Positions 10,538 through 29,012 of a stretch of DNA of 50,134 bases are shown here, piece by piece. How positions within the stretch are numbered: the stretch's first letter is position 1; the number at the start of each line of letters is the position of its first letter. A program made the position numbers and the translations under genes. The notes beneath the pieces were generated by a model that worked only from the letters and a program-made list of their open reading frames with translations, was not told where the DNA came from and did no database searches. The stretch is from Candidatus Omnitrophota bacterium (GTDB taxonomy: Bacteria; Omnitrophota; Gorgyraeia; JAGLLT01). The DNA lies in assembly GCA_023140385.1 (NCBI GenBank), contig JAGLLT010000008.1, positions 1-50,134 on the forward strand. Direction: 5' to 3'.

Positions 10538-10605
10538 TTAACTGTTATCCACCTACGAGGAGAGACGCCTATGTCCCACCTCGTAGGTGGGCCGCGGGTG
10601 TAATT
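10538..10605. repeat. Palindromic repeat (CCACCTACGAGG...CCTCGTAGGTGG), copy 1
   Basis: 12 bp inverted repeat; near-identical direct copy at 12107-12175. Confidence 0.85.
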
Positions 10606-12106: not shown

Positions 12107-12175
12107 TTAACCGTTATCCACCCACGAGGAGGGACACCTATGTCCCACCTCGTAGGTGGGACAGCGGGTGTAATT
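12107..12175. repeat. Palindromic repeat, copy 2 of 10538-10605
   Basis: GTTATCCACC.ACGAGGAG.GAC.CCTATGTCCCACCTCGTAGGTGGG...GCGGGTGTAATT. Confidence 0.85.
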
Positions 12176-13846: not shown

Positions 13847-13857
13847 TAGCATTTAAG

Positions 13858-14040
13858 ATCTCTCACCCGTCTTTGACGAGTTCGAGATCCAATTTGTTTG
13901 TTAGTGTGTACTTAAAATATCTCTCACCGGCCTTTGGCAGGTTCGAGATCCAATTTGTTTGTTAAAATTGTACCTAAAATATCTCTCACCCGTCTTTGAC
14001 GAGTTCGAGATCCAATTTGTTTGCTAAAATTGTACAAATT
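13858..14040 (+). repeat. Three tandem 60-62 bp hairpin-containing repeats abutting tRNA-Ser(CGA)
   Basis: Units at 13858, 13919, 13981: ATCTCTCACC-hairpin-GTTCGAGATCCAATTTGTTTG...TGTAC. Confidence 0.92.
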
Positions 14041-14131
14041 GGAGAGATGCCAGAGCCCGGTTTATCGGGGCCGCCTCGAAAGCGGCTGTCCGCTTTGCGG
14101 ACCGGGGGTTCGAATCCTCCTCTCTCCGCCA
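14041..14131 (+). tRNA. tRNA-Ser(CGA)
   Basis: GGAGAGA/TCTCTCC acceptor, GCCGC-CTCGAAA-GCGGC anticodon arm, long variable arm, GTTCGAATC, CCA. Confidence 0.95.
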
Positions 14132-14174
14132 TTCTGCTTCGCCAAGCTACTTTCGTGTTTGGCTTCGCAGGAAT
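14132..14174 (+). repeat. Post-tRNA palindromic element, CTTCG family
   Basis: TTCTGCTTCGCCAAGCTACTTTCGTGTTTGGCTTCGCAGGAAT, near-identical to 9149-9190. Confidence 0.9.
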
Positions 14175-14192
14175 TGGCCTTTTGGTAAAAGT

Positions 14193-14435
14193 ATGTATAT
14201 TGTATATATCCTTGTAAGTAGAAAAGATTATAGCCGTTATTATATAGGTATTACGCAAGATTTAAATAGGCGGTTAAGGGAGCATAATAGCGAGCGCGCT
14301 GCTTACGCTAAAAGATATGCTCCATGGGAAATAGAAACTTATATAAGCTTTAAGAATAAACGCCTTGCCGAAGAGTTTGAAAAGTATTTAAAAGCAGGCT
14401 CCGGACATGCTTTTTTAAAAAGAAGGCTTATATAG
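14193..14435 (+). CDS. Stand-alone GIY-YIG nuclease (80 aa)
   Basis: VYIL...YYIG, RRLREHN, PW, FEKYLK. Confidence 0.9.
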   Translation: MYIVYILVSRKDYSRYYIGITQDLNRRLREHNSERAAYAKRYAPWEIETYISFKNKRLAEEFEKYLKAGSGHAFLKRRLI

Positions 14436-14545
14436 AATAAAAGGCAAAGTAGAATGGTGATTATAAACAGGAAAGAGGGTTTTGGGGGAAGTAGTATTTT
14501 ATCACAATAAAGTGATACCTATTATAATAGAGAAAGAATTGATTA

Positions 14546-15649
14546 ATGAAAGCAGAAAATAGTATTCCCGCATTAAAAATCGGTAATTTGGAAGCTCGGG
14601 TTCCCATAGTTCAGGGAGGTATGGGGGTTGGTATTTCGGGTGCCAACCTGGCCTCCGCGGTCGCCAATGAAGGAGCCATAGGAGTAATTTCATCTGTGGG
14701 ACTGGGGATATTTGATAGTGATGTAAAAACTAGTTTTGCCGAAGCTAATAAGCAGGCCTTAATTGATGAAATCAGGCGAGCTAGAAGCATGACCAAGGGT
14801 ATTTTAGGTGTGAATATTATGCTTGCTCTTACCGATCATGCCAAGCATGTAAGGGCGGCAATCGATGAAAAAATCGATATAGTTTTTCTTGGCGCCGGGC
14901 TCCCTCTAAAAAATTTTGTAGATATGTCAATCAGTGAACTTAAAAAATTACACACAAAATTCGCGCCCAAGGTTTCTTCCGCCAGGGCCGCGGATCTTAT
15001 TTTTAAACACTGGGCCAAGAATTACAATCATGTGCCCGATGCCTTGGTGGTGGAAGGCCCTTTAGCCGGAGGCCATTTGGGCTTTAAAAAAGAAGACCTT
15101 GATAAGCCGGAATTTTCTTTGGAGAAAATAGTTCAAGCTTGTGTAAGCTGCCTGAAGCCTTATGAGGAACGTTTTAAGAAAATTATTCCTGTAATTGCTG
15201 CCGGAGGTATTTATACGGGCGCGGATATATATAAGTTTCTGCGAATGGGCGCGGGAGCAGTTAAAATGGGTACGCGTTTTGTGGCCACATATGAATGTGA
15301 CGCGGCTGATGAATTTAAGCAAATGTATGTAGACTGCAAAAAGGAAGATATTACTGTAATTGATAGCCCGCTGGGTTTGCCCGGAAGAGCTATTGTTAAT
15401 AAATTTATCACTGATGTAAGAAGCGGCCTGAAGAAACCTTTTGAGTGCTTGTGGAAGTGCCTTAAAATGTGTGATTATACAAAAGCTCCATACTGCATTG
15501 GCCAGGCTTTGTATAACGCGAAAATGGGAAACCTAAAGGATGGCTTCGCGTTCGCGGGAGCCAACGCTTACAGGATAAAAGAAATCATTTCAGTAAAAGA
15601 CCTTATAGAGACGCTTTTAAAAGAATATAAACTTGCCGCCGGAGTATAA
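14546..15649 (+). CDS. Nitronate monooxygenase/FabK family flavin oxidoreductase
   Basis: PIVQGGMGVG, EGPLAGGHLG, IAAGGI, MGTRF. Confidence 0.9.
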   Translation: MKAENSIPALKIGNLEARVPIVQGGMGVGISGANLASAVANEGAIGVISSVGLGIFDSDVKTSFAEANKQALIDEIRRARSMTKGILGVNIMLALTDHAKHVRAAIDEKIDIVFLGAGLPLKNFVDMSISELKKLHTKFAPKVSSARAADLIFKHWAKNYNHVPDALVVEGPLAGGHLGFKKEDLDKPEFSLEKIVQACVSCLKPYEERFKKIIPVIAAGGIYTGADIYKFLRMGAGAVKMGTRFVATYECDAADEFKQMYVDCKKEDITVIDSPLGLPGRAIVNKFITDVRSGLKKPFECLWKCLKMCDYTKAPYCIGQALYNAKMGNLKDGFAFAGANAYRIKEIISVKDLIETLLKEYKLAAGV

Positions 15650-15720
15650 AAGCTAAAGTTGTTGCCTTGCCCATCTTAATTATTGGTGTAGTTGAAGCCG
15701 ATAAAAAGGAGGCGATGAAA

Positions 15721-16152
15721 ATGATATTGACCAGTCCGAACTTTCAGAATAACGGCGTTATTCCCGCGAAATTTACCTGCCAGGGAGAAGATGTTAATCC
15801 GACGATGGTTATTGATGGGACTCCCGAAGGAACCAAAAGCATGGCTTTAATTGTTGATGATCCGGATGCTCCCGGGAAGACATGGGTACACTGGGTTGTT
15901 TTTGATATTCCGGCCGCTCAGAAGATTGATGAAAACAGCGTTCCGGGGAAGCAGGGTGTTAATGATTTTGGCCTAAGAGACTATAGAGGACCCTGCCCGC
16001 CATCCGGTACCCACCGTTACTTTTTCAAGATATATGCCCTTGATAAAATCCTTGGCCTAAAGGAAGGTATAAGCAAAGAGGAGTTGGAGGAGGCCATTGA
16101 GGGACATGTGCTGGATAAGGTTCAACTGATAGGTTTGTATAAAAAACAATAA
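15721..16152 (+). CDS. YbhB/YbcL family PEBP protein
   Basis: DDPDAP, WVHWVV, GPCPPSGTHRYFF; start chosen from AAGGAGG spacing. Confidence 0.92.
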   Translation: MILTSPNFQNNGVIPAKFTCQGEDVNPTMVIDGTPEGTKSMALIVDDPDAPGKTWVHWVVFDIPAAQKIDENSVPGKQGVNDFGLRDYRGPCPPSGTHRYFFKIYALDKILGLKEGISKEELEEAIEGHVLDKVQLIGLYKKQ

Positions 16153-16176
16153 CTGCCGCCTAACTTTCATATTTTT

Positions 16177-16204
16177 GAAACTTTTAACGAAAAAGATTGT
16201 CTAA
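16177..16204 (+). promoter_or_regulatory. ECF sigma promoter (autoregulatory)
   Basis: GAAACTTTT...GTCTAA with 17 bp between AAC and GTCTA; same motif at 17899. Confidence 0.7.
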
Positions 16205-16209
16205 TATAA

Positions 16210-16809
16210 ATGGATAGAGAAGATTCTTATATTGAGAGGGATGACACAGCGTTGATTCAGGCTTTTCAGGCTGATGAAGAGGAGGCCTTTGATAAGCTGG
16301 TTATAAAGCATAAGAACAGGGTTTTTAATTTATGTTATCGTTTTGTAGGCAGTTACGAAGAAGCGGACGACTGTGCCCAGGAAACCTTTGTAAAGGTTTA
16401 TCGTTCTTTAAAGAAGTTTAAATTCAAATCGGCCTTTTCGACGTGGCTCTATGCTATAACGGTTAATACCTGTAAGAATAAACTTTCATCCTTAGAGTAC
16501 CGGTACAAAAAAAAGATGGTGCGGCTTGACGGCCCTAAGGGCGGAGAAGATGGTGTTTATCGGGTTGAGGTGCAAGATGAGTCTATGTCTCCCCGGGTTG
16601 AAATTGAGAGGAAAGAGAAGAAGGGCTTGATTCAGAAAGCGATAGACTCCCTGCCGGAACAGCAAAAGGTGGTAGTAGTCCTGCGTGATATTGAAGGGCT
16701 GTCTTATGAAGAGATAGCCGAGGTAGCCGGTTTTAAGCCGGGTACTGTAAAGTCAAAACTTGCCAGGGCGCGGCAGCAGCTCAGGGAAAAGCTAAAAGGG
16801 TTGATATAA
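16210..16809 (+). CDS. ECF RNA polymerase sigma-70 factor
   Basis: DCAQETF, FSTWLYAITVN, GLSYEEIA, GTVKSKLARAR. Confidence 0.95.
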   Translation: MDREDSYIERDDTALIQAFQADEEEAFDKLVIKHKNRVFNLCYRFVGSYEEADDCAQETFVKVYRSLKKFKFKSAFSTWLYAITVNTCKNKLSSLEYRYKKKMVRLDGPKGGEDGVYRVEVQDESMSPRVEIERKEKKGLIQKAIDSLPEQQKVVVVLRDIEGLSYEEIAEVAGFKPGTVKSKLARARQQLREKLKGLI

Positions 16810-17871
16810 ATGAATTGTAATGAGATTAAAAAACTTTTATCCGAATATATTGACGGGGCCTTAGAAGCAGACGAAAAGGCGGTTGTAGAGGAGCACCTTG
16901 CTTCCTGCGAAAAGTGTTCGGAAGAAGCTGCCTTATTAAAAGCCTGCGTTGAAAAGATTGGCTCCTTAGAAAAAATTGAGGCGCCGGAGGAGTTTCTGAA
17001 GAAGGTTAAGGAGCGTGTTGAGCGCCGCTCCGTCTTTCAGGAAATGATGCGCGGGCTGTTCGTGCCCGTTAGGATAAAAATTCCTTTAGAGTTGGCCGGC
17101 GTAGCGGTAAGTGTGGTCTTAGTTATTCTTATTTTAAATACTACTCAGCCGCAAAAGCAAATCGCGAGTTTGCCTCAACCAACCGATTCTATGCGTGCAC
17201 CGAACCCTACGTGGTTCGGTGCCGGAGAAGGATTAGCTGGAAAGAGGCCTGAGGAGGACAGTATAAGAGTTGCCTCAAAAGAAGTAAAGAAGCCGCCGTT
17301 AGTCATAAAAGAAGAACTGCTTTCTTATTCAAGAGGTGTTTTAGAAGATGAAAAAGATTCTAGGATAAGGCCGGAAGAAAAACCGATCGAGCTGGCGCTT
17401 TTGATAAGGCCAAAGGATGTTGGCAGTAAGGGCTACTCGGACGCGGCGCTGGACAGTTCATTAGCAGGCTTTGATTATGATGGTTATGAGGAGATAGCTC
17501 CAGCTCCGGGCAGTTATTTAGAGCAGTCAATTAGAGGAGATCACTCGGCGATTGATAAAGCGGACTTAGGCCTTGCGGTTGTAGATAGTGAGGAAGAGAG
17601 ACAAAAAGAAGTAGCCCTATCAGATATACAGAAGTCATATCTTGAAATTAAAAAACTAGTCGAGATTGCAAAAGGAGAAATCATATCTGTAAGCTATAAT
17701 GAAAATACAAATGAACCCCAAGCAATAACTATAAACCTTCCCGTGGAAAACAGCAGTTTGTTCTTAGATAATTTGAACCAACTGGGTGAACTACAAAGTC
17801 CCCCTTCCTTTGCCCCGGCAGAAGGCGAAAGATTAATTCGCCTGCGAATACAGCTTATACCCGCCAACTGA
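16810..17871 (+). CDS. Zinc-finger (zf-HC2) anti-sigma factor, membrane anchored
   Basis: C...HLASCEKC (HxxxCxxC), one TM segment, directly coupled to the sigma gene. Confidence 0.88.
   Translation: MNCNEIKKLLSEYIDGALEADEKAVVEEHLASCEKCSEEAALLKACVEKIGSLEKIEAPEEFLKKVKERVERRSVFQEMMRGLFVPVRIKIPLELAGVAVSVVLVILILNTTQPQKQIASLPQPTDSMRAPNPTWFGAGEGLAGKRPEEDSIRVASKEVKKPPLVIKEELLSYSRGVLEDEKDSRIRPEEKPIELALLIRPKDVGSKGYSDAALDSSLAGFDYDGYEEIAPAPGSYLEQSIRGDHSAIDKADLGLAVVDSEEERQKEVALSDIQKSYLEIKKLVEIAKGEIISVSYNENTNEPQAITINLPVENSSLFLDNLNQLGELQSPPSFAPAEGERLIRLRIQLIPAN
17197..17222 (-). repeat. GTAC-family palindrome inside the anti-sigma CDS
   Basis: GCACCGAACC-CTACGT-GGTTCGGTGC; reverse complement matches the post-tRNA hairpins including the ACGTAG loop. 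Confidence 0.75.
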
Positions 17872-17898
17872 TACATCAAGCAACAATTCAAATTTTTT

Positions 17899-17926
17899 GG
17901 AACTTTTTCGTTTCCTTCTTGTCTAA
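17899..17926 (+). promoter_or_regulatory. ECF sigma promoter upstream of alpha-2-macroglobulin
   Basis: GGAACTTTT...GTCTAA, same spacing as 16177. Confidence 0.7.
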
Positions 17927-18082
17927 TTAAATGAGAGCGTGAAAAGGTTGTGAATGGGATTGATTAGAGATTATTAATATCTTCACTTTCGAGGTGGTCG
18001 TAGGTATGGTAAAATATAGTTTAAGCTTCGGAGTTAATTCTCCCGTGCCCTAATTGTACGGGATCATTAAGGAGATTCACTT

Positions 18083-21000
18083 ATGAAATCTTTTACTGGA
18101 TTTAAACGAGGGTGTTTTTATTGCTTGGCAGGTGTTTTGTTGGTTTTTGGGCTTGTTGCTATAACCGGCGCGGATGAAGCGGGTTATGGAGAACTGAAGA
18201 TAGAGGCTGAGAAGCTTTTTGGTGAAGGGTCTTATGGGTTGGCGCGCAAGGTCTATTTAAAGGCGGACGTGCTTGAGCTTTCCGCGGAAGAGGCGCGCTG
18301 GGTAGATTTTCGCCTGGCTGATACTATGTGGCGTTCACAGGCGGGAACACAGACGGCTGATAACACAGAGTATGAACAGGCGAGAAAGCAGCTTGAGGAA
18401 TTAATCCGTGACGTTAATCGCCCTGAAGAACAAAATCGGGCCTGGGCTGAGGCGCAGGAGTCGCTGGGTGATTTTTGGTGGACGCGCCGCAATTCGCAAA
18501 ATTGGCATCAGGCCTGGCCTTATTATCAGAAGGCGCTTGACTGGTGGGCGGGGGCAAAAGAAATTGAGTTGGCACGAGGGCGTTACATTAAAATTGTTTG
18601 GAATATAGCCATGCCCTCATGGAGCACAGGAAGGAATTACAGCTACTACTATTACGGTTACTATGGCAATATATTGCCCCTTGAGATACTTGAGAATGTT
18701 CTTAAAATTGCCCAAAAGGAAAACGATAAAGCGAGGGCGCATTATCTTATCGCGATGACCCTTCGCCGGGGCGGCGATTGGCAGAAGCGGGAGCGGGTAG
18801 TTGAGGAGTTTGAGGCCGCGCTTAAGTTAAAGAGATCAACCGATTGGTATGATGACGCGCTTTATCATTACGCGGAGTGGCTTGTCAGTAACGGTAGAGC
18901 TGTTTTACTTAAAGACGGCGGTTGGCAAATGGAGCCCGACTATATAAGAGCGTTGGAATTATTCAGGCGCCTGGTAACAGAGCATCAAAAAGGCGAGACG
19001 CGGTACTTTGATCAGGCAAAAGAACGGATAAAAGAGATTACCGGTCCAAAGGTAAATATTAGAGTTTCACACATATTTCTTCCTGGCTCAGAGATTCAAT
19101 TCTATCTGAACTGGCGCAATGTTGATAACATCAATTTTACACTTTATAAAGTAAACCTTTCCGAAGATGTTGAATTTTTAGGAAGTGACGCGGGAAACAG
19201 CCAATGGCTTGAACATATAGACCTTAGCCGGAGCCGGAAGGTTAAGGCCTGGTCAAAGGCGGTGGAGAATAAAGGCAAGCACAAGCCGCGGCAGGAAACG
19301 GCGCGCCTTGATGATAAACTGCCGCTGGGAGCATACGTTTTAGAGGCAAAAAGTCAGGATGCCCGGAGCCGGGAACTGATACTGGTAACCGATGCCTCGA
19401 TAGTTATGAGGACGTCGGGTAAACAGGCCCTGGTTTACTTCGCGAACGCCCTTGACGGCTCACCTATTAATAGAGCAGTAGTGGAATTGTGGGAGCGGCG
19501 CTATAACGGCCAAAAGTGGATCTGGCGAAGGATGGAAAAAGAGACAGATAAGGACGGTATTTGTGTTTTCGACCTGTCAGACACCAGCAATAATTTAGAA
19601 CTTTTTGCCGGAGCGGCTTTTGGCAATCGCCAGGCGTTTAGTATAGGCAATAGTTATAACTACAACCGCCAAAAAGATAAGTGGCGTGTTTACGCGTCCT
19701 GCGACCGCCCCGCCTACCGGCCGGAAGAAAAGGTCAGCTGGAAGTTTATTGCCCGCAGATATGACGGCGCCGTTTATTCAACGCCGGCTCATCAAACTGT
19801 TGAATTTGAAATCAGAGACCCGCGCGGCAGTGAGGTCAAGAAAGACAAGGTTAAATTAAACGCCTTTGGAAGCGCCTGGGGCTCACTTGAATTAACCGAG
19901 TCTATGCCGCTGGGAGAGTACAGGGTAATCTTCTGGGATGAAAAACGGAGTAACTATATAGGAGAGGCGGTTCTCTTCAGGCTTGAAGAGTATAAGCTGC
20001 CGGAGTTTAAAGTCAGTATACAGACACCGCGGGAAAAAGGACAAAGAAAGGCCTTTTGCCTGGGAGATATAGTAGAAGTAGATATTCAGGCCGACTACTA
20101 TTTTGGCGGGGCGGTAGCTAATGCTGATGTTGAGGTAGTTGTCTATCAAAATCCGTTTTATCATTTCTGGCAGACACCGCGCGACTTCCCCTGGTATTAT
20201 GAAAATACCAACTCATACCGCTCCTACTATGGAGACGGCCAGGTGATTAAGCGGGAGAAGATAAAGACTGACGCGGCAGGCAAGGCTGTCCTAAAATTTG
20301 AGACACCCAAAAACGCGCGGCAGGACTTTGAGTACCGTGTTGAAGCGCGTGTTACCGACGCTTCACGCCGTGAAATCATCGCCAATGAAACTGTGCGTGT
20401 TACGCGGCAGGCTTACTATGTATATTTTGACAACAAACACAACCTTTACCGCCCGCAGGATAAGGTGGAGGTTGATATTAAAACCCTTGATGCCAACAAC
20501 CAGCCGGTGCCAAGAGAAGGCGTAGTGAGGGTAACGAGAGATTACTGGTATGAGGTCTGGGAGACTCCTGACGGCAGAGAGGTAAAGGGCAGGGAGCTAA
20601 AGAGACTGCGCGGGAAATATGGCATTTTCCCGCCGAGCCCGGCAAAGAAAGGTAATAAGCGCTGGCGCCTTAAATTTAGCGGCTATGAGCAGGATGTAGT
20701 TCTGACGCGGACTATTAAGACTGATGTTGAAGGTAAGGCCGAATTCACCTTCACTCCGGAGAGAGAAGGTTATTATCGAATTAGCTGGACGAGCCGGGAT
20801 AAAAGAAATACGCCTATTAATAGCCAGACGACCGTCTGGGTTGCTGTTAATGCTACTACAGAACTTAGTTACCGCCCCGGCGGCGTTGAAATTATCGTTG
20901 ATAAGGATACCTTTAACAGCGGACAAAAAGCGGCTGTGATGCTAAGTGTACCCACCAATGGCCGCTATGTGCTCTTTAGCGTTGAAGGAGATGACCTTTA

Positions 21001-24000: not shown

Positions 24001-24055
24001 CGTACCGGAGATTCGCGCCAACGGCCGGGAGGCACGAATAACAGTTGAAGAATGA
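18083..24055 (+). CDS. Bacterial alpha-2-macroglobulin family protein (1990 aa)
   Basis: Signal peptide, DRPAYRP, EEYKLPEF, RSDF...IFW, thioester YPYGCTEQ, DGGWGWW, WSNTRDTA, MYVPE. Confidence 0.95.
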   Translation: MKSFTGFKRGCFYCLAGVLLVFGLVAITGADEAGYGELKIEAEKLFGEGSYGLARKVYLKADVLELSAEEARWVDFRLADTMWRSQAGTQTADNTEYEQARKQLEELIRDVNRPEEQNRAWAEAQESLGDFWWTRRNSQNWHQAWPYYQKALDWWAGAKEIELARGRYIKIVWNIAMPSWSTGRNYSYYYYGYYGNILPLEILENVLKIAQKENDKARAHYLIAMTLRRGGDWQKRERVVEEFEAALKLKRSTDWYDDALYHYAEWLVSNGRAVLLKDGGWQMEPDYIRALELFRRLVTEHQKGETRYFDQAKERIKEITGPKVNIRVSHIFLPGSEIQFYLNWRNVDNINFTLYKVNLSEDVEFLGSDAGNSQWLEHIDLSRSRKVKAWSKAVENKGKHKPRQETARLDDKLPLGAYVLEAKSQDARSRELILVTDASIVMRTSGKQALVYFANALDGSPINRAVVELWERRYNGQKWIWRRMEKETDKDGICVFDLSDTSNNLELFAGAAFGNRQAFSIGNSYNYNRQKDKWRVYASCDRPAYRPEEKVSWKFIARRYDGAVYSTPAHQTVEFEIRDPRGSEVKKDKVKLNAFGSAWGSLELTESMPLGEYRVIFWDEKRSNYIGEAVLFRLEEYKLPEFKVSIQTPREKGQRKAFCLGDIVEVDIQADYYFGGAVANADVEVVVYQNPFYHFWQTPRDFPWYYENTNSYRSYYGDGQVIKREKIKTDAAGKAVLKFETPKNARQDFEYRVEARVTDASRREIIANETVRVTRQAYYVYFDNKHNLYRPQDKVEVDIKTLDANNQPVPREGVVRVTRDYWYEVWETPDGREVKGRELKRLRGKYGIFPPSPAKKGNKRWRLKFSGYEQDVVLTRTIKTDVEGKAEFTFTPEREGYYRISWTSRDKRNTPINSQTTVWVAVNATTELSYRPGGVEIIVDKDTFNSGQKAAVMLSVPTNGRYVLFSVEGDDLYSYRLIHLTGTVKLIELPVEQKHVPNIFLNAVMVADGQLFTDTKQVIVPPVEHFLEVEVKSDREEYEPRDEGTLTITTRDHQGRPVSAEVALGLVDESVYYIQKDYAPDPRQFYYGTKRGHAIRMQSTFYQKSYMKLVEGDKNQLIDEKILRRLKLEERDKIDHKYSYDSFGGNINGVERIRVSGDLSVMDACCECSEESGSMMQSKKKIVGREFKLCSGMASGGEPAVQVRSDFRSTIFWQPDIITGKDGKAEVKVKFADSLTGWKASARVVSRGNQFGTASTNMRTKKPLIVRLQAPRFFVVGDEVTVSAVINNNTNKPINVSPNLEAEGLTVKGVLKDGKLKRTDRQQVKVDANGEARIDWLVAVEKAGEVKLMISGRGGKHSDAMEKKYFAYEHGIEKFVSKSGKTRSDEVVVKLNIPKERRPETTTLNVQITPSMAVTMLDALPYLIDYPYGCTEQTLSRFLPAVITAKTLNDLGIEPEVIAGKIFGGIEEEYAGKTHPKGKKDLKKLDKMVKEGLVRLYDFQHSDGGWGWWKKGESDHYMTAYAVWGLALAQESGIKVKKDVLRRGADYLDKEIVEEEDSYDMQAWMLHALSSYHASIKQHKVGKLQVKAFENLWKNKDRLNAYTRALLALSADNYGYTEKAKILVQNLANGVKVDTSPDTSVIQRGRQQSHKAVIGTAHWGEDGVYWRWSEGGVEATAFALQALLTIDSQNELIEPVTNWLIKNRRGAQWSNTRDTAITILTLNRYLRQSGELEAGIEYELFVNNKLIAKKKITKEDIFSAPSVFEIDRALIKNGVNEIRVRRKKGNGPLYFAARAKFFSLEEPITACGNEIFVRRQYYKLVGRPTLLKGYVYDKQPLNDEGMIKSGERVEVVLTIEAKNNYEYLVFEDLKPAGFEAVQLQSGEPLYARELKSGAVEYLFGSSEEDAAILPPEPDGNADDYTGRRRWIYQELRDRKVVLFIDKLPEGVWEIRYNLRAEVPGKFHALPVLGHAMYVPEIRANGREARITVEE

Positions 24056-24159
24056 CATAAAAGGTATAAACTTTTTGCTTGCGGGAGGAAGTGGGAGGTG
24101 CTATAGTAAAATTAGGTATTATTGTAAATGTCCATTAAGCCGAGGGGGGGGAAGTTTTA

Positions 24160-24471
24160 ATGAAAAAAGAAGAGCTTAAGAAAAAAATTGATAAGCTGTG
24201 GGAAACCAGTAAAAATGACCTGGAAAAGATTATGAAGAACGCTGAACGCCTGGCTAAGGATGGCGAGCGTTACATTAAAGATAAGTCTGAGAAGGGAAAG
24301 AAGCAGTTGGAGATAGCGGCTCTGGCCTTACAGAGAGAGAAGCTGTATTATGAATTAGGCAAAGTTTTGGCTAAAACCCCAAAGGCCAAATGGGCCGGCA
24401 CCAAAAAAGCGCTTGATATTGTAACTAAGATTAAAGGTATTAATCTTAAAATAGGACAGAAAAAAAGATAA
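24160..24471 (+). CDS. Hypothetical basic coiled-coil protein
   Basis: 103 aa ORF with G-rich RBS. Confidence 0.7.
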   Translation: MKKEELKKKIDKLWETSKNDLEKIMKNAERLAKDGERYIKDKSEKGKKQLEIAALALQREKLYYELGKVLAKTPKAKWAGTKKALDIVTKIKGINLKIGQKKR

Positions 24472-24647
24472 AAAACGGGGTAGGGTTATATTTTTAGTCT
24501 AAAATAACACCCTGCCCCTCTCTTTTGTAATGGTGTTTTAATTGAGCATAAAAAACACAGGGCTATTAGAGGCGACTTCGGGTGCTATTGATTTTTATCT
24601 TTAAAGTGGTATAATTGCCAAAAGAGACTTTTAAAAAGGTGGAGCGC

Positions 24648-25019
24648 GTGAAAAAAGGCATAGCTCTTTTTTTTATCTTGTTTGGCCTGTGCGGTTGTTC
24701 GCAGGGATTGATGAGATTGATAGAGGTTGGTAAAAGCCAGGAGGGATTCCAGAAGGAGTTAGTCAAAGAAACGGAAAACTTTGAGGCTGTTAAAGAGGCT
24801 ATAGGAAGCGGTGAGATTAAGACGGGCTGGTCCCGGGATTCCATTAGAGAACTTTGCGGCGGGCCGGTTGTTGTGATCTATGAGGAAAATGACGAAGAAA
24901 AATGGGTTTATAAGCCGGGGCACGCGACCTTTTTTGACAATAATAAAGTGTATCTATTTTTTGATAAAGAGGGCTTGTTAAAAAATTACGAAATTTTAAC
25001 TAAGCCCGATAATAAATAA
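24648..25019 (+). CDS. Putative lipoprotein, SmpA/BamE-like
   Basis: Lipobox LCGC; GWS...GGP...EKWVY...YLFFD pattern; GTG start after GGAG. Confidence 0.6.
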   Translation: MKKGIALFFILFGLCGCSQGLMRLIEVGKSQEGFQKELVKETENFEAVKEAIGSGEIKTGWSRDSIRELCGGPVVVIYEENDEEKWVYKPGHATFFDNNKVYLFFDKEGLLKNYEILTKPDNK

Positions 25020-25028
25020 GGCAACTAT

Positions 25029-25421
25029 ATGAAGCAAGATTATTCAGGCCCGGAGAGGCGCGAGAACAAGAGGGTAGATGTTAGTTTTATTATTGCTTAT
25101 AGAGTAAATAAAGCACCTACTATCTTTATGCTTGTGGGAGGTAAAGAAGTTTATGCTTTGATGATGGATTTAAGTGAAGGAGGTATGGCACTTTTGACAG
25201 AGTACGAGATACCGGTTGGCACTGAACTATCCATTAAGTTTACTTTGATTAATTTTGAGGTTGAAAAAGAGCATCGTACCCGGGTAATGAAGATAACCGG
25301 CAAAGTAAAATACTGCGGCCCCAGCGAAAAAGAAGAAAACCGCTTAGGTATAAGTTTTACCCAGATAAAAAAGGAAGATAAGGCAGCTATAGCCAATTTT
25401 GTGAAGACAATAAAAGCGTAA
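25029..25421 (+). CDS. PilZ domain protein
   Basis: RxxxR (RENKR) and DxSxxG (DLSEGG) c-di-GMP motifs. Confidence 0.88.
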   Translation: MKQDYSGPERRENKRVDVSFIIAYRVNKAPTIFMLVGGKEVYALMMDLSEGGMALLTEYEIPVGTELSIKFTLINFEVEKEHRTRVMKITGKVKYCGPSEKEENRLGISFTQIKKEDKAAIANFVKTIKA

Positions 25422-25451
25422 TTTATGTTTTGATAAACAATTGCGGGTCAA

Positions 25452-25892
25452 GTGAGACGAATTCTAAAGTTATTTATTTTCCTAACGATTTTTCTTCTAA
25501 TAGCCGCCAGCATTTTTTATTCTATTGATAAACAGATCCTTGTAGAAAGGCTTATTTCACGTCTACCCATAGACAAGCACATACCCTATGGTAGAGGCAC
25601 AATCCTGATAAAGGAAGTAAAGGGAAATAGGCTGGTGGGTGTAGAAATTTATGACAGACACGATCCTCTAAAAGAAGTGGTAATTCGAGCCGAAAGCGCC
25701 GACTTTATTATTGATGACCGAGGCAGGAAAATGGATATAATCTTACGTAACGGAACCATTGAAGAAAAAATGCTTAAAAATGAAGACAAAGTGTACTTGA
25801 TGAGTTTTAAAGAATATACAATGACTATTGATCCCACGGAGATTAACAAAAAGCTAAAAAAGCTTAGGAAAAAGATTGAGGAGCACGATTAA
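25452..25892 (+). CDS. Membrane-anchored protein resembling the LptF/G periplasmic beta-jellyroll
   Basis: N-terminal TM; GNRLVGVEIYD...IRAESA...LRNG pattern. Confidence 0.45.
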   Translation: MRRILKLFIFLTIFLLIAASIFYSIDKQILVERLISRLPIDKHIPYGRGTILIKEVKGNRLVGVEIYDRHDPLKEVVIRAESADFIIDDRGRKMDIILRNGTIEEKMLKNEDKVYLMSFKEYTMTIDPTEINKKLKKLRKKIEEHD

Positions 25893-25918
25893 GCAGAAAA
25901 TAGTAAAAAAATGAACCC

Positions 25919-25954
25919 AAAAGAACAACCCGCGAAACGTGAGGTTGTTTTTTT
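25919..25954 (+). terminator. Intrinsic terminator
   Basis: AACAACC...GGTTGTT stem followed by T tract. Confidence 0.65.
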
Positions 25955-25970
25955 GTCTCTATTAGAGCCC

Positions 25971-25999
25971 TTGACAATGAAATACATATATTGTAGTAT
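25971..25999 (+). promoter_or_regulatory. sigma70 promoter of tRNA-Ser(GCT)
   Basis: TTGACA-17 bp-TAGTAT. Confidence 0.7.
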
Positions 26000-26022
26000 G
26001 ATTACTGCTAAAGGGTTAATAC

Positions 26023-26116
26023 GGAGAGGTGCCTGAGTGGCTGAAGGGAGCCGCCTGCTAAGCGGTTGTCCTGCCTAAAAGCGGGACCCTGGGTTCAAAT
26101 CCCAGCCTCTCCGCCA
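26023..26116 (+). tRNA. tRNA-Ser(GCT)
   Basis: GGAGAGG/CCTCTCC, GCCGC-CTGCTAA-GCGGT, long variable arm, GTTCAAATC, CCA. Confidence 0.95.
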
Positions 26117-26291
26117 GCGTACCACGTAGGGTACGGTGCGTGTCTAGTACCCGATGTGGTACTAGGCGCGGCACCGCATAGGATACGTTTAATACCAAAA
26201 TTAGTCTGGTACAGGGCTGTGCCCCGTACCAAGAACAAGTCTGGTACAGGGCTGCGCCCCGTACCCGAAAGTACTTGAGTGGTACGGGGAG
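26115..26291 (+). repeat. Cluster of GTAC-family palindromes after tRNA-Ser(GCT)
   Basis: CGTACC/GGTACG, CTAGTACC/GGTACTAG, two AGTCTGGTACAGGGCTG.GCCCCGTACC units, CCCCGTACC/GGTACGGGG. Confidence 0.9.
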
Positions 26292-26297
26292 TTGATT

Positions 26298-27074
26298 ATG
26301 CCGGATACTTTTTTATTGACTATACTTTTTATTGCCGTAACTACGGTAATTACCGCTTTCGTTAAAGGGAAGAGCAGGGATAGGTGCTTGATGGACTTGT
26401 CCGGCGACGTGGTTGAAGTTGAGATGGTAAACGGCAAGGTTATCTGGGGCAGGCTGAAGGTAGAAAGCACGGGTTTAGAGTTAAGCTATTTAGAAAAACA
26501 CAAAGACGAAGACGGACATGACGAATATAGCTATATGCTATATAAAAATGAGTTTGCGGGTATACAGGCTCTGGTGTTGTATCACGATAAACTGGATGAA
26601 AAGAGCAGAAAAAATAGAGAAGAAGAGTTAAAAAAAACATACCGCCCCGGCTTTTTCAGGCGCTTTAAGAGAAAGATAAGAAACTTCTTTGCCACCGTCA
26701 GAGACTCTATTTTAGAGGTAGTTAATCTTTTTATGGGCCAGGCAAAGAAGATGTCTCCGGCTAAAGGTGTACTCACTTCTCAGGATAAATACGTTAACAA
26801 GATGAAGAGCAATCTTTTTGGTATGTCGGCGACCGCTTATGAGCCCCTTCTGGAAAAGCACATCGGTAAAAAGGTTGTGCTTGAACTGCGAAGAGGAGAT
26901 AAATCATGTGAGTACGTGGGTGTTTTAAAAGACTACACGGCGGAGTTTATTGAAGTTATTGATATTAGTTACAAAAAAGAAAGCAGTGAAGCGGCCAAAA
27001 AAACAGACTTTGTAGTTCCCCGCTCCCTCGGTATCATAAGGCACTTAGCAGAACAACAAATCTTGCGCCCATAA
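26298..27074 (+). CDS. Conserved-looking hypothetical protein with N-terminal TM helix
   Basis: 258 aa ORF from ATG after GGGGAG; no family recognised with confidence. Confidence 0.75.
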   Translation: MPDTFLLTILFIAVTTVITAFVKGKSRDRCLMDLSGDVVEVEMVNGKVIWGRLKVESTGLELSYLEKHKDEDGHDEYSYMLYKNEFAGIQALVLYHDKLDEKSRKNREEELKKTYRPGFFRRFKRKIRNFFATVRDSILEVVNLFMGQAKKMSPAKGVLTSQDKYVNKMKSNLFGMSATAYEPLLEKHIGKKVVLELRRGDKSCEYVGVLKDYTAEFIEVIDISYKKESSEAAKKTDFVVPRSLGIIRHLAEQQILRP

Positions 27075-27080
27075 TAGCTT

Positions 27081-27141
27081 CCTCCTTCGCTAAAGCTTCC
27101 GCCTTCGCTCTAAAGCTACGGCGGACGGGGCGGCGGACGGG
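27081..27141 (+). repeat. Nested CCTTCGCTAAAGCT-type palindromes (CTTCG family)
   Basis: CCTCCTTCGCTAAAGCT followed by CCGCCTTCGCTCTAAAGCTACGGCGG; related reverse copy at 45012-45036. Confidence 0.75.
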
Positions 27142-27172
27142 ACGCTATGGCTTAAGTAGAAAATTCACAGAT

Positions 27173-27249
27173 GCGCCCATAGCTCAATTGGACAGAGTAG
27201 CGGTCTACGAAACCGTTGGTTCCCCGTTCGAATCGGGGTGGGCGCGCCA
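27173..27249 (+). tRNA. tRNA-Arg(ACG)
   Basis: GCGCCCA/TGGGCGC, GCGGT-CTACGAA-ACCGT, GTTCGAATC, CCA. Confidence 0.95.
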
Positions 27250-27394
27250 CCGTACCATTCGCAAAATTTTTAAATTTTGCTCAGGTACGGTGCGCGGCAC
27301 AGGGTTAGTTTAGTGTTGAGTATGTCTAATACAGAGATTAGTCTGGTACAGAGGCGTGTCCCGTACCCGAAAGCATTTGAGTGGTACGGGGAGG
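27248..27394 (+). repeat. GTAC-family palindromes between tRNA-Arg and GIY-YIG gene
   Basis: CACCGTACC-[GCAAAATTT/AAATTTTGC insert]-GGTACGGTGCGCGGCAC; TTAGTCTGGTACAG...CCCGTACCCGAAAG...GAGTGGTACGGGGAG as at 26201-26291. Confidence 0.9.
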
Positions 27395-27401
27395 ATTAAA
27401 A

Positions 27402-27662
27402 ATGTATTTTGTTTATGTACTTATAAGTAAAAAGGATAAGGCTTTTTATATTGGTTTTACGGAAAATGTTGAAAAGAGATTGAGTGAACACAATAGAGGC
27501 GAGGCGGTAAGCACCAAGTCAAGAAGGCCGCTTGTATTGATGTATTATGAGGCGCACTTATCGAAGATAGACGCATTGAGAAGAGAAAGGTATTTTAAAT
27601 CTAGTAAGGGAAGAACTACGTTAAAGCAAATGCTCTGCGAGAGTTTGAGAAGCGGTTTATAA
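27402..27662 (+). CDS. Stand-alone GIY-YIG nuclease (86 aa)
   Basis: FVYVL...FYIG, KRLSEHN, STKSRRP, RRERYFK. Confidence 0.92.
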   Translation: MYFVYVLISKKDKAFYIGFTENVEKRLSEHNRGEAVSTKSRRPLVLMYYEAHLSKIDALRRERYFKSSKGRTTLKQMLCESLRSGL

Positions 27663-27671
27663 TTGATAAAG

Positions 27672-28133
27672 ATGAATGATGAATATTATATGCGGGAGGC
27701 GCTGAAGCTTGCCGTTGAAGCTTTTAAGGCGGATGAAGTGCCGATGGGGGCGGTGATAGTACATAAAGATAGAATTATTGCCAAAGCCCACAATCAAATA
27801 AAGACCCTAAAAGACCCCACGGCTCACGCTGAGATGATTGCCATTACTCAGGCGGCCAGTTATCTTAAAAACGAACGCCTCATTGATACTGTGATGTATG
27901 TAACCATTGAACCTTGCGCGATGTGTATGGGCGCCTTGATACTGGCCAGAGTTAACAGGCTTGTTTACGGAGCGGATGACAGTAAAGCCGGCGCCTGCGG
28001 TTCGGTGATGGATTTATCAGATAATAAAAAATTAAATCACAGCATAGAGGTTAAAAACGGCATTCTTGAAGATAGCTGCCGTGATATTATACAAGAGTTT
28101 TTTAAATTAAAAAGAAAGAAGATCCTTCGCTGA
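27672..28133 (+). CDS. tadA: tRNA adenosine(34) deaminase
   Basis: DEVPMGA, DPTAHAEM, TIEPCAMC; adjacent to its substrate tRNA-Arg(ACG). Confidence 0.95.
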   Translation: MNDEYYMREALKLAVEAFKADEVPMGAVIVHKDRIIAKAHNQIKTLKDPTAHAEMIAITQAASYLKNERLIDTVMYVTIEPCAMCMGALILARVNRLVYGADDSKAGACGSVMDLSDNKKLNHSIEVKNGILEDSCRDIIQEFFKLKRKKILR

Positions 28134-28160
28134 AGAAGCGGTGAAAAGCAATTATAACAT

Positions 28161-28196
28161 GGAGAGGTGCGAGAGCGGCTTAATCGGCGCGCTTGG
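28161..28196 (+). pseudogene. tRNA-Ser(GGA) 5' half, copy 1 (divergent allele)
   Basis: 36 nt matching 28625-28660 with 3 substitutions; ends at ...GCTTGG within the anticodon. Confidence 0.85.
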
Positions 28197-28263
28197 CCAC
28201 CGCCTATGGCGGGGTCCCGCTCTCTTCATTGAAGATACTTCTTTCGGAGAAGCGGTGAAAAGC
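28197..28263 (+). repeat. Structured 67 bp insert following tRNA 5' half (copy 1; copy 2 at 28547-28613)
   Basis: CCACCGCCTATGGCGGG.TCCCGCTCTCTTCATTGAAGATACTTCTTTCGGAGAAGCGGTGAAAAGC present twice, one mismatch. Confidence 0.9.
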
Positions 28264-28275
28264 GAAACAAGAACT

Positions 28276-28524
28276 ATGTTTTACGTTTATATCTTGAAAA
28301 ATAGTGAAAGCAAATATTATACTGGAATGACATCTAAGCCCCCTGAAGCCAGATTAAAAGAACATAATTCTAATGCAAATAAGTGGACAAAAAATAAAGG
28401 TCCTTGGGGTCTTATTTATGCAAAAGCTTTTGAAACAAAAAAAGAAGCTTGGTTAAGAGAGCGTCAGATTAAAAAATATAAAGGCGGAAGTGCCTTTAAA
28501 GAATTAATCCGGAGAGGTGCGTGA
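28276..28524 (+). CDS. Stand-alone GIY-YIG nuclease (82 aa)
   Basis: YVYIL...YYTG, ARLKEHN, GPW, LRERQIK; stop codon lies inside the tRNA 5' half copy 2. Confidence 0.9.
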   Translation: MFYVYILKNSESKYYTGMTSKPPEARLKEHNSNANKWTKNKGPWGLIYAKAFETKKEAWLRERQIKKYKGGSAFKELIRRGA

Positions 28525-28546
28525 GCGGCTTAAACGGCACGCTTGG
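28511..28546 (+). pseudogene. tRNA-Ser(GGA) 5' half, copy 2
   Basis: 36 nt identical to 28625-28660. Confidence 0.85.
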
Positions 28547-28624
28547 CCACCGCCTATGGCGGGATCCCGCTCTCTTCATTGAAGATACTTCTTTCGGAGA
28601 AGCGGTGAAAAGCAATTATAACAT

Positions 28625-28712
28625 GGAGAGGTGCGTGAGCGGCTTAAACGGCACGCTTGGAAAGCGTGTGTACTTAACGGTACCCTGGGTTCGAATCCCA
28701 GCCTCTCCGCCA
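28625..28712 (+). tRNA. tRNA-Ser(GGA)
   Basis: GGAGAGG/CCTCTCC, CACGC-TTGGAAA-GCGTG, variable arm GTAC/GTAC, GTTCGAATC, CCA. Confidence 0.95.
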
Positions 28713-28715
28713 GCC

Positions 28716-29012
28716 TAATCCCATAAGCAGTTAATTCCCTTGACGTTATATATAAAAGTAGTAAAATCAAGGTGTTAACTGCTTTTTGTATTTTTATATA
28801 AATCTTGCATATTTTTATGTTTTTTGAGACTTGTGACACGAAAATGACACGTTATAGCAAATAATAGTTTAACCTAAGGGAGGTTATTAATGGATGGTTA
28901 TGATGCTGCGTTTGTAGCCCCCTGCACATAGACTTCCCTTATTAACAAGTTGACTACCGAAGTTAACGTAGTCACTAAAAATATTTCCAACATAATGTCT
29001 ATGGTAGAAAAA
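28716..29012 (+). repeat. About 300 bp island left-end sequence duplicated at 35390-35686
   Basis: Constant 6674 bp offset; first ~100 bp essentially identical, then diverged. Confidence 0.9.

Follow-up and report, generated by a model that had tools for sequence, protein, structure and literature searches.

Integrative islands insert into transfer RNA (tRNA) genes by means of tyrosine recombinases, and insertion of the integrase type classically leaves a footprint in such genes, namely direct repeats of a tRNA segment. Repetitive extragenic palindromic (REP) elements and the RAYT transposase form a unit, the 'REPtron', in which a small gene lies between inverted palindromic hairpins, with hairpin-only copies elsewhere. 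Here we describe small cassettes, each combining a tRNA gene, palindromic hairpins and one short GIY-YIG nuclease gene, in a stretch of 50,134 nucleotides (nt) from a Candidatus Omnitrophota bacterium (contig JAGLLT010000008.1, positions 1-50,134, which is contig C56 of its assembly; hereafter the window). One report describes SegB as a free-standing GIY-YIG homing endonuclease encoded in the tRNA gene cluster of phage T4, with a recognition site that takes in a T-psi-C stem-loop motif conserved in tRNA genes, and states that cleavage by SegB drives the inheritance of its own gene and of neighbouring tRNA genes (PMC2330249). In a second report, YhbQ and YazA are placed in the Slx1 family, and Slx1 itself has a C-terminal zinc-finger domain and needs Slx4 (PMC7017083). 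A GIY-YIG protein is also listed among the genes inferred to have been transferred from Patescibacteria in a third report, the available part of which does not mention tRNAs (PMC12455944). In the literature searched, mostly open-access main texts, so that an earlier mention is possible, we found no description of small GIY-YIG genes tied to bacterial tRNA genes, and no assigned function or genomic habit for bacterial members of the UPF0213 family.

Nuclease genes beside tRNA genes

The window belongs to an assembly of 1.495 Mb in 57 contigs (G000), with 41% G+C, 39 detected tRNAs and an estimated completeness of 92.7%. An original prediction, made from the letters of the window, had pointed to three divergent, stand-alone GIY-YIG genes of 80-86 amino acids (aa), each co-oriented with a tRNA at about 60-150 base pairs (bp) and accompanied by a palindrome family of its own. 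All of this held. The proteins match Pfam PF01541 at 55-62 bits (cut-off 22.6; Table 1), two of them being 35% and 33% identical to the third, the 28276 protein, and the three palindrome families (CTTCG, GTAC and CCGCC/GGCGG) were located in the window. We named the cassettes by their nuclease genes: cassette A holds gene 27402, which starts 152 bp behind tRNA-Arg(ACG), cassette B holds gene 28276, 100 bp before tRNA-Ser(GGA), and cassette C holds gene 14193, which starts 61 bp behind tRNA-Ser(CGA), always on the strand of the tRNA. Cassettes A and C have the layout that we call 'tRNA upstream' (tRNA, then gene) and cassette B the layout 'tRNA downstream' (gene, then tRNA).

Cassette B contains the strongest feature of the locus, on which the original prediction was silent. 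The stretch of tRNA-Ser(GGA) from base 1 to base 36, the second of the anticodon, was found three times, as half-copies a and b and inside the true gene. Both half-copies continue into a 68-nt module of two hairpins, module X, which opens with the CCGCC/GGCGG hairpin. In its first copy it stands in place of the rest of the tRNA, upstream of the nuclease start, and the stop codon of the nuclease gene falls within half-copy b. A 350-bp unit (module, open reading frame (ORF), tRNA 5' half) and a 114-bp unit without ORF are arranged head to tail before the intact tRNA-Ser(GGA). The sole ORF of the 350-bp unit (28161-28510) is the 82-aa nuclease, and no recombinase gene lies inside it. The opening motif of module X and a later, pairing-capable GCGGTG segment are common to the leaders of relatives at two loci (L094 and L096; L-numbers denote loci of related and other genomes, C-numbers contigs of G000), a variant of the module occurs in L098, and the 3' pseudo-copy of L109 has just the opening double hairpin. 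The 28276 protein clusters with further genes of the 'tRNA downstream' type at Ser(GGA) and Glu(TTC), which likewise have CCGCC elements. Its nearest sequences in other phyla are 56% identical and the nearest in its own class 54%, which fits acquisition of the cassette; no close relative of it was found in its own family or order.

To place the three genes among their kin, all PF01541 matches were taken from 30 relatives of the same class and from G000 (31 genomes), and the places with small open frames were retrieved. A hidden Markov model (HMM) made from the three window proteins re-identified 96 genes, 85 of which were retained (E <= 1e-15, ORF <=150 aa); the 11 excluded matches (E > 1e-15 or ORF >150 aa) include fragments and fused forms, and UvrC-sized matches were left out. 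A tRNA was found within 200 bp of 39 of the 85 genes and within 100 bp of 33 (37/83 within 200 bp without two loci that are duplicated between contigs of one genome, G008). The end of the ORF overlaps the tRNA 5' end in 8 cases, the tRNA follows at 1-100 bp in 14 and precedes at 36-189 bp in 17. The chance expectation for a 260-bp gene in G000 is about 2% (39 tRNAs x ~740 bp in 1.495 Mb), and although related genomes are non-independent samples, the enrichment is far beyond what kinship could explain.

The association was not confined to this class. With the 28276 protein as query against one genome per species, we obtained 80 loci, which belong to Patescibacteria, Saccharibacteria, Omnitrophota, Ignavibacteria, Bacteroidota, Margulisiibacteriota, Clostridia and others; 40 of these have a tRNA within 200 bp, a count that shows breadth and not a family-wide rate, since the loci were picked by likeness to a tRNA-linked protein. 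Gene and tRNA were co-oriented in all 79 linked loci of both sets (39/39 and 40/40).

We also looked for fragments of the adjoining tRNA on the far side of the ORF. The tRNA was aligned to the flank beyond the ORF, a match had to beat 60 shuffles of the tRNA and to score >=24, and the 200 nt on the outer side of the tRNA served as control. In 'tRNA downstream' loci, a copy of the same tRNA, mostly beginning at tRNA position 1, was present at most 200 nt upstream of the ORF in 28 of 51, compared to 9 of 51 for the control flank. In 'tRNA upstream' loci, a 3' tRNA fragment directly after the ORF was present in 11 of 28 (control 5/28). Examples come from Glu, Leu, Pro, Tyr, Gln, Cys, Trp, Lys, Met, Ser, Asp and Val tRNAs in many phyla. 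The general form is a tRNA 5' part, the ORF and a tRNA 3' part, with an overlap that leaves one complete tRNA on one side; among the three cassettes of the window such fragments frame only the one at Ser(GGA). The breakpoints are scattered over the tRNA, in the anticodon loop, the D loop, the T loop and after the CCA end. Short G+C hairpins take the place of an arm in the partial copies or sit in a loop (D loop, anticodon loop or arm, T loop). In the 140 nt preceding the ORF, 12 of the 80 cross-phylum loci have a CCGCC-N2-6-GGCGG hairpin, as against 10 of 1329 other sequence windows of the same loci.

Small genomes held several divergent paralogues at different tRNAs, with up to 11 PF01541 matches in one genome (one of them UvrC-sized). 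Interrupted or fragmentary copies exist as well (internal stops in 3 matches, plus the excluded fragments), and many copies are located at contig ends. Four of the six PF01541 matches of G000 adjoin a tRNA; the fourth such gene, on contig C5, lies before tRNA-Gln(CTG) and is preceded by a tRNA 5' part that ends right after the anticodon. A locus on C44 shows T-loop-like motifs by eye, yet the tRNA model gives nothing there at E <= 1 and it was not counted. A copy without tRNA link (C7:43496-43711, L179) overlaps the start of a UPF0004 (MiaB/RimO-type) gene.

The protein

The window proteins end after the nuclease domain, with no second domain found by Pfam and no NCBIfam family above its cut-off; they consist of the catalytic domain only, and a DNA-binding module as in SegB-like homing genes is absent. 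The catalytic core of GIY-YIG nucleases comprises two Tyr, an Arg, a His/Asn region and a Glu. Among 36 tRNA-linked sequences, Y5, Y15, G17, A58, E62 and K66 were invariant, and R26 and H30 were at least 90% conserved.

A search with phmmer matched the 28276 protein to the solved UPF0213 proteins 1ZG2 (E 6.6e-8) and 1YWL (E 3e-6). The AlphaFold2 model of this protein had a mean predicted local distance difference test (pLDDT) score of 84.9. Foldseek ranked 1ZG2 and 1YWL first and fourth for the model and placed the catalytic domain of At-HIGLE (7WME) and Slx1 in 6SEH, 7CQ2-4 and 4XM5, entries on branched-DNA processing, among the best matches as well, with the UvrC domain just 26th. The likeness to Slx1 covers the nuclease domain only (template modelling score 0.6 by query length and 0.2 by target length). 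On the predicted model, the proteins thus appear to be catalytic-domain-only members of the UPF0213/YhbQ branch, with a fold nearest to the structure-specific nucleases Slx1 and HIGLE.

At E <= 0.001 the 28276 protein matches 3278 clusters formed at 50% identity, mostly with 80-130 aa, which makes this a large family. A phage origin of the genes was considered and set aside, as only 3 of 50,697 phage records hold the family. Membership of a defence system was likewise dropped, since PADLOC gave only weak matches to the nuclease domain within larger proteins.

Hairpin families and nuclease clades

Most genes without a tRNA form clades of their own in a tree of 84 small GIY-YIG proteins from the class. 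The hairpin type follows the nuclease clade. The 14193 protein of cassette C belongs to a five-member clade (99% by the Shimodaira-Hasegawa-like approximate likelihood ratio test, SH-aLRT). Each of the five lies behind a tRNA (Ser, Asp, Met, Ser, Glu) and carries the same CTTCG hairpin beginning at the CCA, in L042, L055, L069 and L084 as in the window. In four of the five, the two ends of the cassette are inverted repeats of about 15 nt, which take in the CCA of the tRNA, with matches of 15/15 (L042), 15/16 (L069), 16/17 (L084) and 13/15 (window); the repeat of the fifth member, L055, is weak. The inverted repeat of cassette C taken alone is not significant, its score of 11 being equal to the shuffle maximum.

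The 27402 protein of cassette A pairs with its copy in a genome of the same order (G006) at 97% support, and both genes follow a tRNA-Arg(ACG) and the same GTAC hairpins. The G006 copy of the leader hairpin differs by one compensatory change (T>C / A>G). The two next relatives of this pair have GAAC/GTTC variants, so that GTAC/GAAC-type hairpins are present in all four members of the Arg-ACG clade. The hairpin directly behind the tRNA folds at -15 kcal/mol (z -4.6, with 0/200 shuffles as good) and is conserved in G006 and in G003, a genome of the same family. A copy of the second hairpin lies at 26238-26291, before a 260-aa ORF. The 27402 protein is 79-81% identical to the L013 copy, with a proportion of nonsynonymous differences (pN) of 0.09 and of synonymous differences (pS) of 0.72.

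A gene for a TadA-type tRNA adenosine deaminase (27663-28133, by Pfam) follows the nuclease gene of cassette A in the same direction. The tRNA edited by TadA is tRNA-Arg(ACG), and the order Arg(ACG), then tadA, is preserved in G003, in G006 and in the congener G001.

The type of the neighbouring tRNA was also clustered on a tree of 77 tRNA-linked proteins, which rests on 86 columns and to whose clustering shared descent contributes: amino-acid type required 47 changes, compared to a shuffled mean of 53.3 and minimum of 49 (0/500 as low). The upstream or downstream layout required 16 changes, compared to 22.4 after shuffling (1/500 as low).

Differences between related genomes

The same sites were compared in the three relatives. 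The TadA of the congener G001 is 93% identical, and window positions 25919-28800 align to G001 at 90-95% identity outside three segments. These segments (26123-26286, 27250-27659 and 28123-28623) are the only unalignable ones and are the three tRNA-flanking spacers. Behind tRNA-Arg(ACG), G001 is without a nuclease gene. Before its tRNA-Ser(GGA) there is an unrelated 141-aa ORF (L089 1970-2395), the start of which overlaps a short fragment resembling the 5' end of the tRNA. This ORF could be another selfish gene that uses the site; to the eye it resembled LAGLIDADG proteins, but Pfam and NCBIfam gave no reliable match. Behind tRNA-Ser(GCT), G001 has what appear to be the last 40 codons of a GIY-YIG gene (PF01541 positions 45-74, E 0.044, below the cut-off).

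In G006 the order tRNA-Arg(ACG), hairpins, nuclease gene and tadA is that of the window. G003 keeps the GTAC hairpins behind Arg(ACG), the last one without its 3' arm, with tadA directly after them. The tRNA-Ser(GGA) site is empty in both G003 and G006. The G003 tRNA-Ser(GGA) has one 61-bp unit upstream and a CTTCG hairpin downstream, which are flanks of the type seen at the window tRNA-Ser(CGA), so that flanks seem to have been exchanged between tRNA-Ser paralogues. Three tandem copies of the 61-bp unit (13846-14040) lie directly upstream of the window tRNA-Ser(CGA); because a single copy precedes the G003 gene, the unit is probably the tRNA promoter region, triplicated in the window. Metagenome contigs break or differ in copy number at these repeats. 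Upstream of its NMO gene, G003 has just a tRNA-Ser 3' remnant and a GTAC hairpin, without nuclease gene. Presence or absence of a gene at the same site in close relatives was seen at Arg-ACG, Ser-GGA, Ser-GCT and Ser-CGA.

The sequence was found in 11 metagenome DNA runs (cold-seep, sediment) and in no RNA run. In four metagenome runs, the joints at the repeats come from tRNA-Ser genes of other organisms.

Other features of the window

The window has four tRNA genes according to ARAGORN, all on the + strand, and all pass the Rfam tRNA cut-off of 29 bits under permissive filters. Their coordinates and those of the cassette parts and other hairpins are given in Table 1.

Table 1. Coordinates of tRNA genes, nuclease genes, hairpins and repeats in the window.
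Feature	Position	Strand	Basis
tRNA 3' end truncated by the contig end, then GTAC hairpin	1-61	+	repeat family D11
Three tandem CTTCG hairpins, away from any tRNA	9100-9243	+	repeat and motif search
tRNA-Ser(CGA), intact, host gene of cassette C	14041-14131	+	ARAGORN; Rfam 40.3 bits
CTTCG hairpin beginning at CCA of tRNA-Ser(CGA)	14129-14175	+	sequence; DNA fold pairs CCA-proximal bases with distal arm
Left inverted repeat of cassette C, first 15 nt of hairpin	14129-14143	+	sequence
GIY-YIG gene of cassette C, 80 aa, 'tRNA upstream' type, CTTCG clade	14193-14435	+	PF01541 55.5 bits
Right inverted repeat of cassette C, 13/15 match to reverse complement of 14129-14143	14443-14457	+	repeat search
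tRNA-Ser(GCT)	26023-26116	+	ARAGORN; Rfam 51.9 bits
GTAC hairpins behind tRNA-Ser(GCT), without nuclease gene	26114-26291	+	repeats, DNA fold
tRNA-Arg(ACG), intact, host gene of cassette A	27173-27249	+	ARAGORN; Rfam 61.5 bits
GTAC hairpin directly behind CCA of tRNA-Arg(ACG)	27248-27292	+	DNA fold
Second GTAC-type hairpin, just 5' of ribosome-binding site	27339-27393	+	repeat family D8
GIY-YIG gene of cassette A, 86 aa, 'tRNA upstream' type, syntenic with G006 copy	27402-27662	+	PF01541 59.5 bits
Partial copy a of tRNA-Ser(GGA), positions 1-36, 33/36 identical	28161-28196	+	blastn-short; repeat families D5/D6
Module X copy 1: CCGCC/GGCGG hairpin and second hairpin	28197-28264	+	DNA fold z -2.4
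GIY-YIG gene of cassette B, 82 aa, 'tRNA downstream' type	28276-28524	+	PF01541 61.5 bits
Partial copy b of tRNA-Ser(GGA), positions 1-36, 36/36 identical	28511-28546	+	blastn-short
Module X copy 2, without ORF, 98.5% identical to copy 1	28547-28613	+	repeat comparison
tRNA-Ser(GGA), intact, putatively regenerated host gene of cassette B	28625-28712	+	ARAGORN; Rfam 52.8 bits
tRNA-Ser-like minihelix (acceptor and T arm, 44880-44918), then CTTCG hairpin	44880-44962	+	DNA fold z -4.3

CTTCG hairpins were found at 14134-14170, at 9101-9235 (three in tandem) and at 44921-44956; these five are all that the whole genome holds, and shuffled sequence gave none. GTAC hairpins lie at 33-50, 26118-26135, 26225-26286, 27251-27289 and 27362-27388, and the CCGCC/GGCGG hairpin at 28199-28211 and 28549-28561. 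The original prediction had also placed such palindromes behind tRNA ends without a nuclease and dispersed elsewhere. Behind tRNA ends, this was seen at 1-61 and 26114-26291, but the site at 44919 follows a minihelix and not a full tRNA: the last 27 nt of the minihelix equal the 3' end of tRNA-Ser(GGA) (27/27), and ARAGORN makes no call. By eye, a near-consensus sigma-70 promoter precedes it (region 44840-44918). Of the dispersed copies, those at 9101-9235 stood, but 17197 is a variant inside a coding ORF (16810-17871) and 27081 belongs to a different palindrome family. A likeness to REPs in number was rejected, as there are only 5-6 copies in this genome.

Other identities of the hairpins were considered and rejected. 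They are not plain terminators, since no T-run follows them and the sole weak terminator-like match, a 5-pair stem, falls in the module X copies (28208 and 28558). A likeness of the long inserts bounded by CCGCC elements to twister ribozymes was dropped, as Rfam did not support it on 20 loci of relatives. At the gathering threshold Rfam gave only tRNAs in the window, and under permissive filters nothing relevant on two window regions, the same 20 loci and the C44 and C9 loci of G000.

A 300-nt direct repeat, 85% identical (28709-29008 and 35383-35682), starts at the 3' end of tRNA-Ser(GGA) and frames a helix-turn-helix gene and a 2016-aa protein with a NACHT/AAA ATPase domain and a weakly Cap4-nuclease-like N-terminus; the arrangement resembles a defence island that has entered beside the tRNA. 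On contig C9 (2271-2730, L177), three hairpin repeats and then, in the same orientation, an 81-aa gene of the 23S_rRNA_IVP family (69.9 bits) stand behind tRNA-Pro(TGG), and a second small gene family therefore uses the niche behind a tRNA. The palindrome at 17160-17280 is related to the GTAC hairpins and lies within the 353-aa ORF 16810-17871; in related-strain contigs from two runs this stretch is replaced by 41 other letters. Additionally, the window contains a 249-nt tandem duplication at its end (49538-50035), a 54-nt palindromic repeat pair (10538-10591 and 12107-12160) and an 85-nt repeat pair (7488-7572 and 8932-9016).

Discussion

Any account of these genes has to cover the anatomy of the cassettes, their enrichment beside tRNA genes, the hairpin types that go with particular clades, the sites at which related genomes differ and a fold resembling structure-specific nucleases. 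We lean towards the reading that they are selfish tRNA-gene cassettes, which would be co-transcribed with the tRNA and would spread by nuclease-stimulated recombination through tRNA homology; cleavage, its substrate, co-transcription and any movement are what we infer from the comparisons above. Such a cassette would carry one gene, for a minimal GIY-YIG nuclease of 80-100 aa, and would lie inside or directly behind a tRNA gene, always in the orientation of the tRNA, so that transcription from the tRNA promoter is possible. Behind Ser(CGA) and Arg(ACG), the stretch from tRNA to ORF has no terminator-like site on the + strand, and none of the three ORFs is preceded by a strong promoter match (>=10/12). 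The cassette would have one of two layouts, a 5' fragment, the gene and a whole tRNA or a whole tRNA, the gene and a 3' fragment; as it carries a duplicate of part of the tRNA, one intact tRNA always remains. The nuclease may nick or cut hairpin- or cruciform-prone DNA at tRNA genes, and repair of the break may use a cassette-bearing copy as template; alternatively, a cassette that has looped out between its tRNA repeats may recombine back in. With the conserved tRNA sequence as homology, the gene could spread without destroying the tRNA of its host. The leftover pseudo-copy would be disrupted by short G+C hairpins in or instead of tRNA arms, each clade having its own hairpins or terminal inverted repeats, and these insertions would lower the loss by repeat recombination and remove a second target.

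Several findings weigh against this reading. Around half of the small GIY-YIG genes lie more than 1.5 kb from any tRNA, and the genomes are related and the cross-phylum loci preselected, as stated above. One clade without tRNA, to which the C7 copy belongs, is followed by a UPF0004 (MiaB/RimO-like) gene in four loci; this pairing makes the clade look stably inherited. Both 'tRNA upstream' cassettes of the window, A and C, lack a detectable tRNA fragment behind the gene, and the hairpin families are low-copy (5-6 copies in G000). In 9 of 9 close pairs pN was 0.08-0.26 and pS 0.67-0.84 (at or near saturation), as for a useful gene, and the proteins have thus been kept functional over long times. 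Cassette A is syntenic between two families of the order, with synonymous sites saturated and pN 0.09, and the truncated hairpin of G003 makes its Arg(ACG) site look like a deletion of the nuclease gene; together, the old pair of window and G006 and this deletion suggest vertical descent with loss for cassette A and not recent movement. In the metagenomes, the contigs of four runs show only the filled form of the own strain, ending at the repeats, and none bridges an empty site, a pattern that speaks neither for nor against excision or expression; cleavage, an excision product or a same-strain empty allele was not seen. As the protein is without a DNA-binding domain, the reading does not account for its choice of site, and the intact tRNA copy would stay a target.

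The original prediction, which is supported in part, had read the locus as a nuclease and non-autonomous hairpin elements homing on tRNA loci or, as a second option that may also hold, as an RNA-associated nuclease co-transcribed with tRNA. The three comparisons that it proposed were favourable, namely tRNA enrichment among homologues, hairpin family against nuclease clade, and empty against filled loci, but cassette A looks vertical and under purifying selection with later deletions. As the hairpins are few, 'non-autonomous elements' is one way to read them.

Among the alternatives, the one that survives best, though we consider it rather unlikely, is that the nuclease is a host gene: a UPF0213 housekeeping enzyme in tRNA operons, made together with the tRNA, inherited vertically and sometimes lost. 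It might clear hairpins or R-loops at busy tRNA genes, or cut tRNA precursors at trailer hairpins; the tRNA fragments would then be scars of tRNA-tRNA recombination and the hairpins processing or stability signals. The strict co-orientation (79/79), the open path from tRNA to ORF behind Ser(CGA) and Arg(ACG) without strong promoters before the three ORFs, the low pN in all nine pairs and the deletion-like site in G003 agree with this. The same holds for the order of Arg-ACG, nuclease gene and tadA kept from G000 to G006 with a compensatory change in the leader hairpin, and for the tRNA-modification neighbours, tadA at 27663 and the UPF0004 gene after the clade without tRNA. However, a host gene does not explain why it should be framed by a copy of the adjoining tRNA (28/51 compared to 9/51 for the control), nor the terminal inverted repeats, nor the divergent paralogues at different tRNAs in small genomes. 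It also leaves unexplained that the congener differs at exactly these spacers and has another ORF at one of them, and that relatives from other phyla are as close as those of the same class.

It is improbable, in our view, that the nuclease is a passenger, that is, cargo such as a defence or anti-defence nuclease, with the tRNA-fragment repeats being att-type scars left by a recombinase encoded elsewhere or by a hairpin-handling transposase acting in trans. The direct repeats of tRNA segments do match the integrase footprint, and similar arrangements occur around other genes. Besides the NACHT-ATPase island behind tRNA-Ser(GGA) and the 23S_rRNA_IVP-family gene behind tRNA-Pro, the 3' half of a tRNA-His (positions 42-77, 36/36) is repeated about 550 bp downstream on C9 (1483-2147), where it frames an ORF that is response-regulator-like by eye and looks like an att-type scar. 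However, the 350-bp unit at Ser-GGA contains only the nuclease ORF, the same single gene is the sole content of such units across phyla, and hairpin and end types follow the GIY-YIG clade. The breakpoints lie at many tRNA positions and not at one crossover site, and PADLOC found just the weak matches described above.

Descent from group I introns of tRNA anticodon loops that carried a GIY-YIG gene, lost the ribozyme and had the tRNA rescued by exon duplication is very improbable: several breakpoints do lie in the anticodon loop, the 27402 protein weakly matches TIGR01453 (group I intron endonuclease, 22 bits with a cut-off of 56) and a group I intron in the anticodon loop of tRNA-Tyr(GTA) of genome G019 (L001 1089-1395, Rfam 94.4 bits) has a GIY-YIG gene just downstream, but that intron is without ORF, Rfam matched no intron model in the window or around the cassettes, breakpoints also lie in the D loop, the T loop and after CCA, and the fold is nearer to Slx1 and UPF0213 than to the other GIY-YIG structures listed. 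ARAGORN misses this intron-bearing tRNA-Tyr(GTA), which is followed by the GIY-YIG gene and then a tRNA-Gly.

A bolder version of the selfish cassette can also be formulated, which we regard as doubtful. The cassettes would be the first transposon-like elements with a minimal structure-specific GIY-YIG nuclease as only enzyme. This nuclease would recognise DNA hairpins and not sequence, cut single-stranded loops exposed by tRNA genes and by its own terminal palindromes, and in this way mobilise hairpin modules without a gene as well as the cassette with one; their targets would be the D, anticodon and T loops and the site behind the CCA, in many phyla. If this were true, the large orphan family UPF0213 would gain a function, and a new class of enzymes that mobilise DNA would be added.

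The tight and oriented association with tRNA genes across phyla, together with the framing fragments, offers testable biology for the UPF0213/YhbQ family, of which two structures are solved. If the cassettes are selfish, they are a common and overlooked mobile element in the tRNA genes of small-genome Patescibacteria, Saccharibacteria, Omnitrophota, Ignavibacteria and Bacteroidota. They would then reshape tRNA operons, break assemblies, create pseudo-tRNAs and lead gene callers to extend ORFs across tRNA fragments. An enzyme of about 80 aa that could find its site with no binding domain would also be of enzymological interest.

Comparison with known systems

The cassettes share some traits with a free-standing homing gene and others with a REP/RAYT unit, but they lack defining traits of both, having no DNA-binding module, no HUH enzyme and few hairpin copies. 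As with SegB, a GIY-YIG gene lies among tRNA genes, and the window cassettes are likewise tied to tRNAs and differ between relatives. SegB is much longer than the window proteins and has DNA-binding parts. It is a phage protein, whereas the cassette proteins are chromosomal, have 80-100 aa with the catalytic domain only, and are almost absent from phage records (3/50,697). Unlike SegB, the cassettes are framed by partial tRNA duplicates and clade-specific hairpins, and the fold of their protein is nearer to Slx1 and UPF0213. A 2026 paper reportedly deals with SegB and the amplification of tRNA-region genes.

The likeness to REP/RAYT units lies in a single small gene flanked by hairpins, in hairpin-only copies and in hairpins specific for a clade; the CTTCG clade has both inverted ends and hairpins, but the genome has only five CTTCG copies, all on the window contig. 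However, the enzyme is a GIY-YIG nuclease, encoded by the sole ORF, and not an HUH/Y1 transposase, there are 5-6 hairpins per genome and not hundreds, and the cassettes are anchored to tRNA genes including the CCA end.

Integrative islands share the insertion into a tRNA gene, a duplicated tRNA segment at the borders that keeps the tRNA whole and, for some breakpoints, a position in the anticodon loop. Unlike them, the 350-bp unit is without a recombinase, it is often the 5' half that is duplicated, so that the cassette lies upstream of the restored tRNA, the breakpoints vary, and the pseudo-copies are remodelled by hairpins. The cassettes also differ from a group I intron with a GIY-YIG ORF, as the window has no Intron_gpI match. 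In contrast to Slx1, the window proteins are without a zinc-finger (PHD/RING-type) domain, whereas like UPF0213 proteins they are stand-alone catalytic domains of about 80-110 aa, with sequence matches to the solved 1ZG2 and 1YWL.

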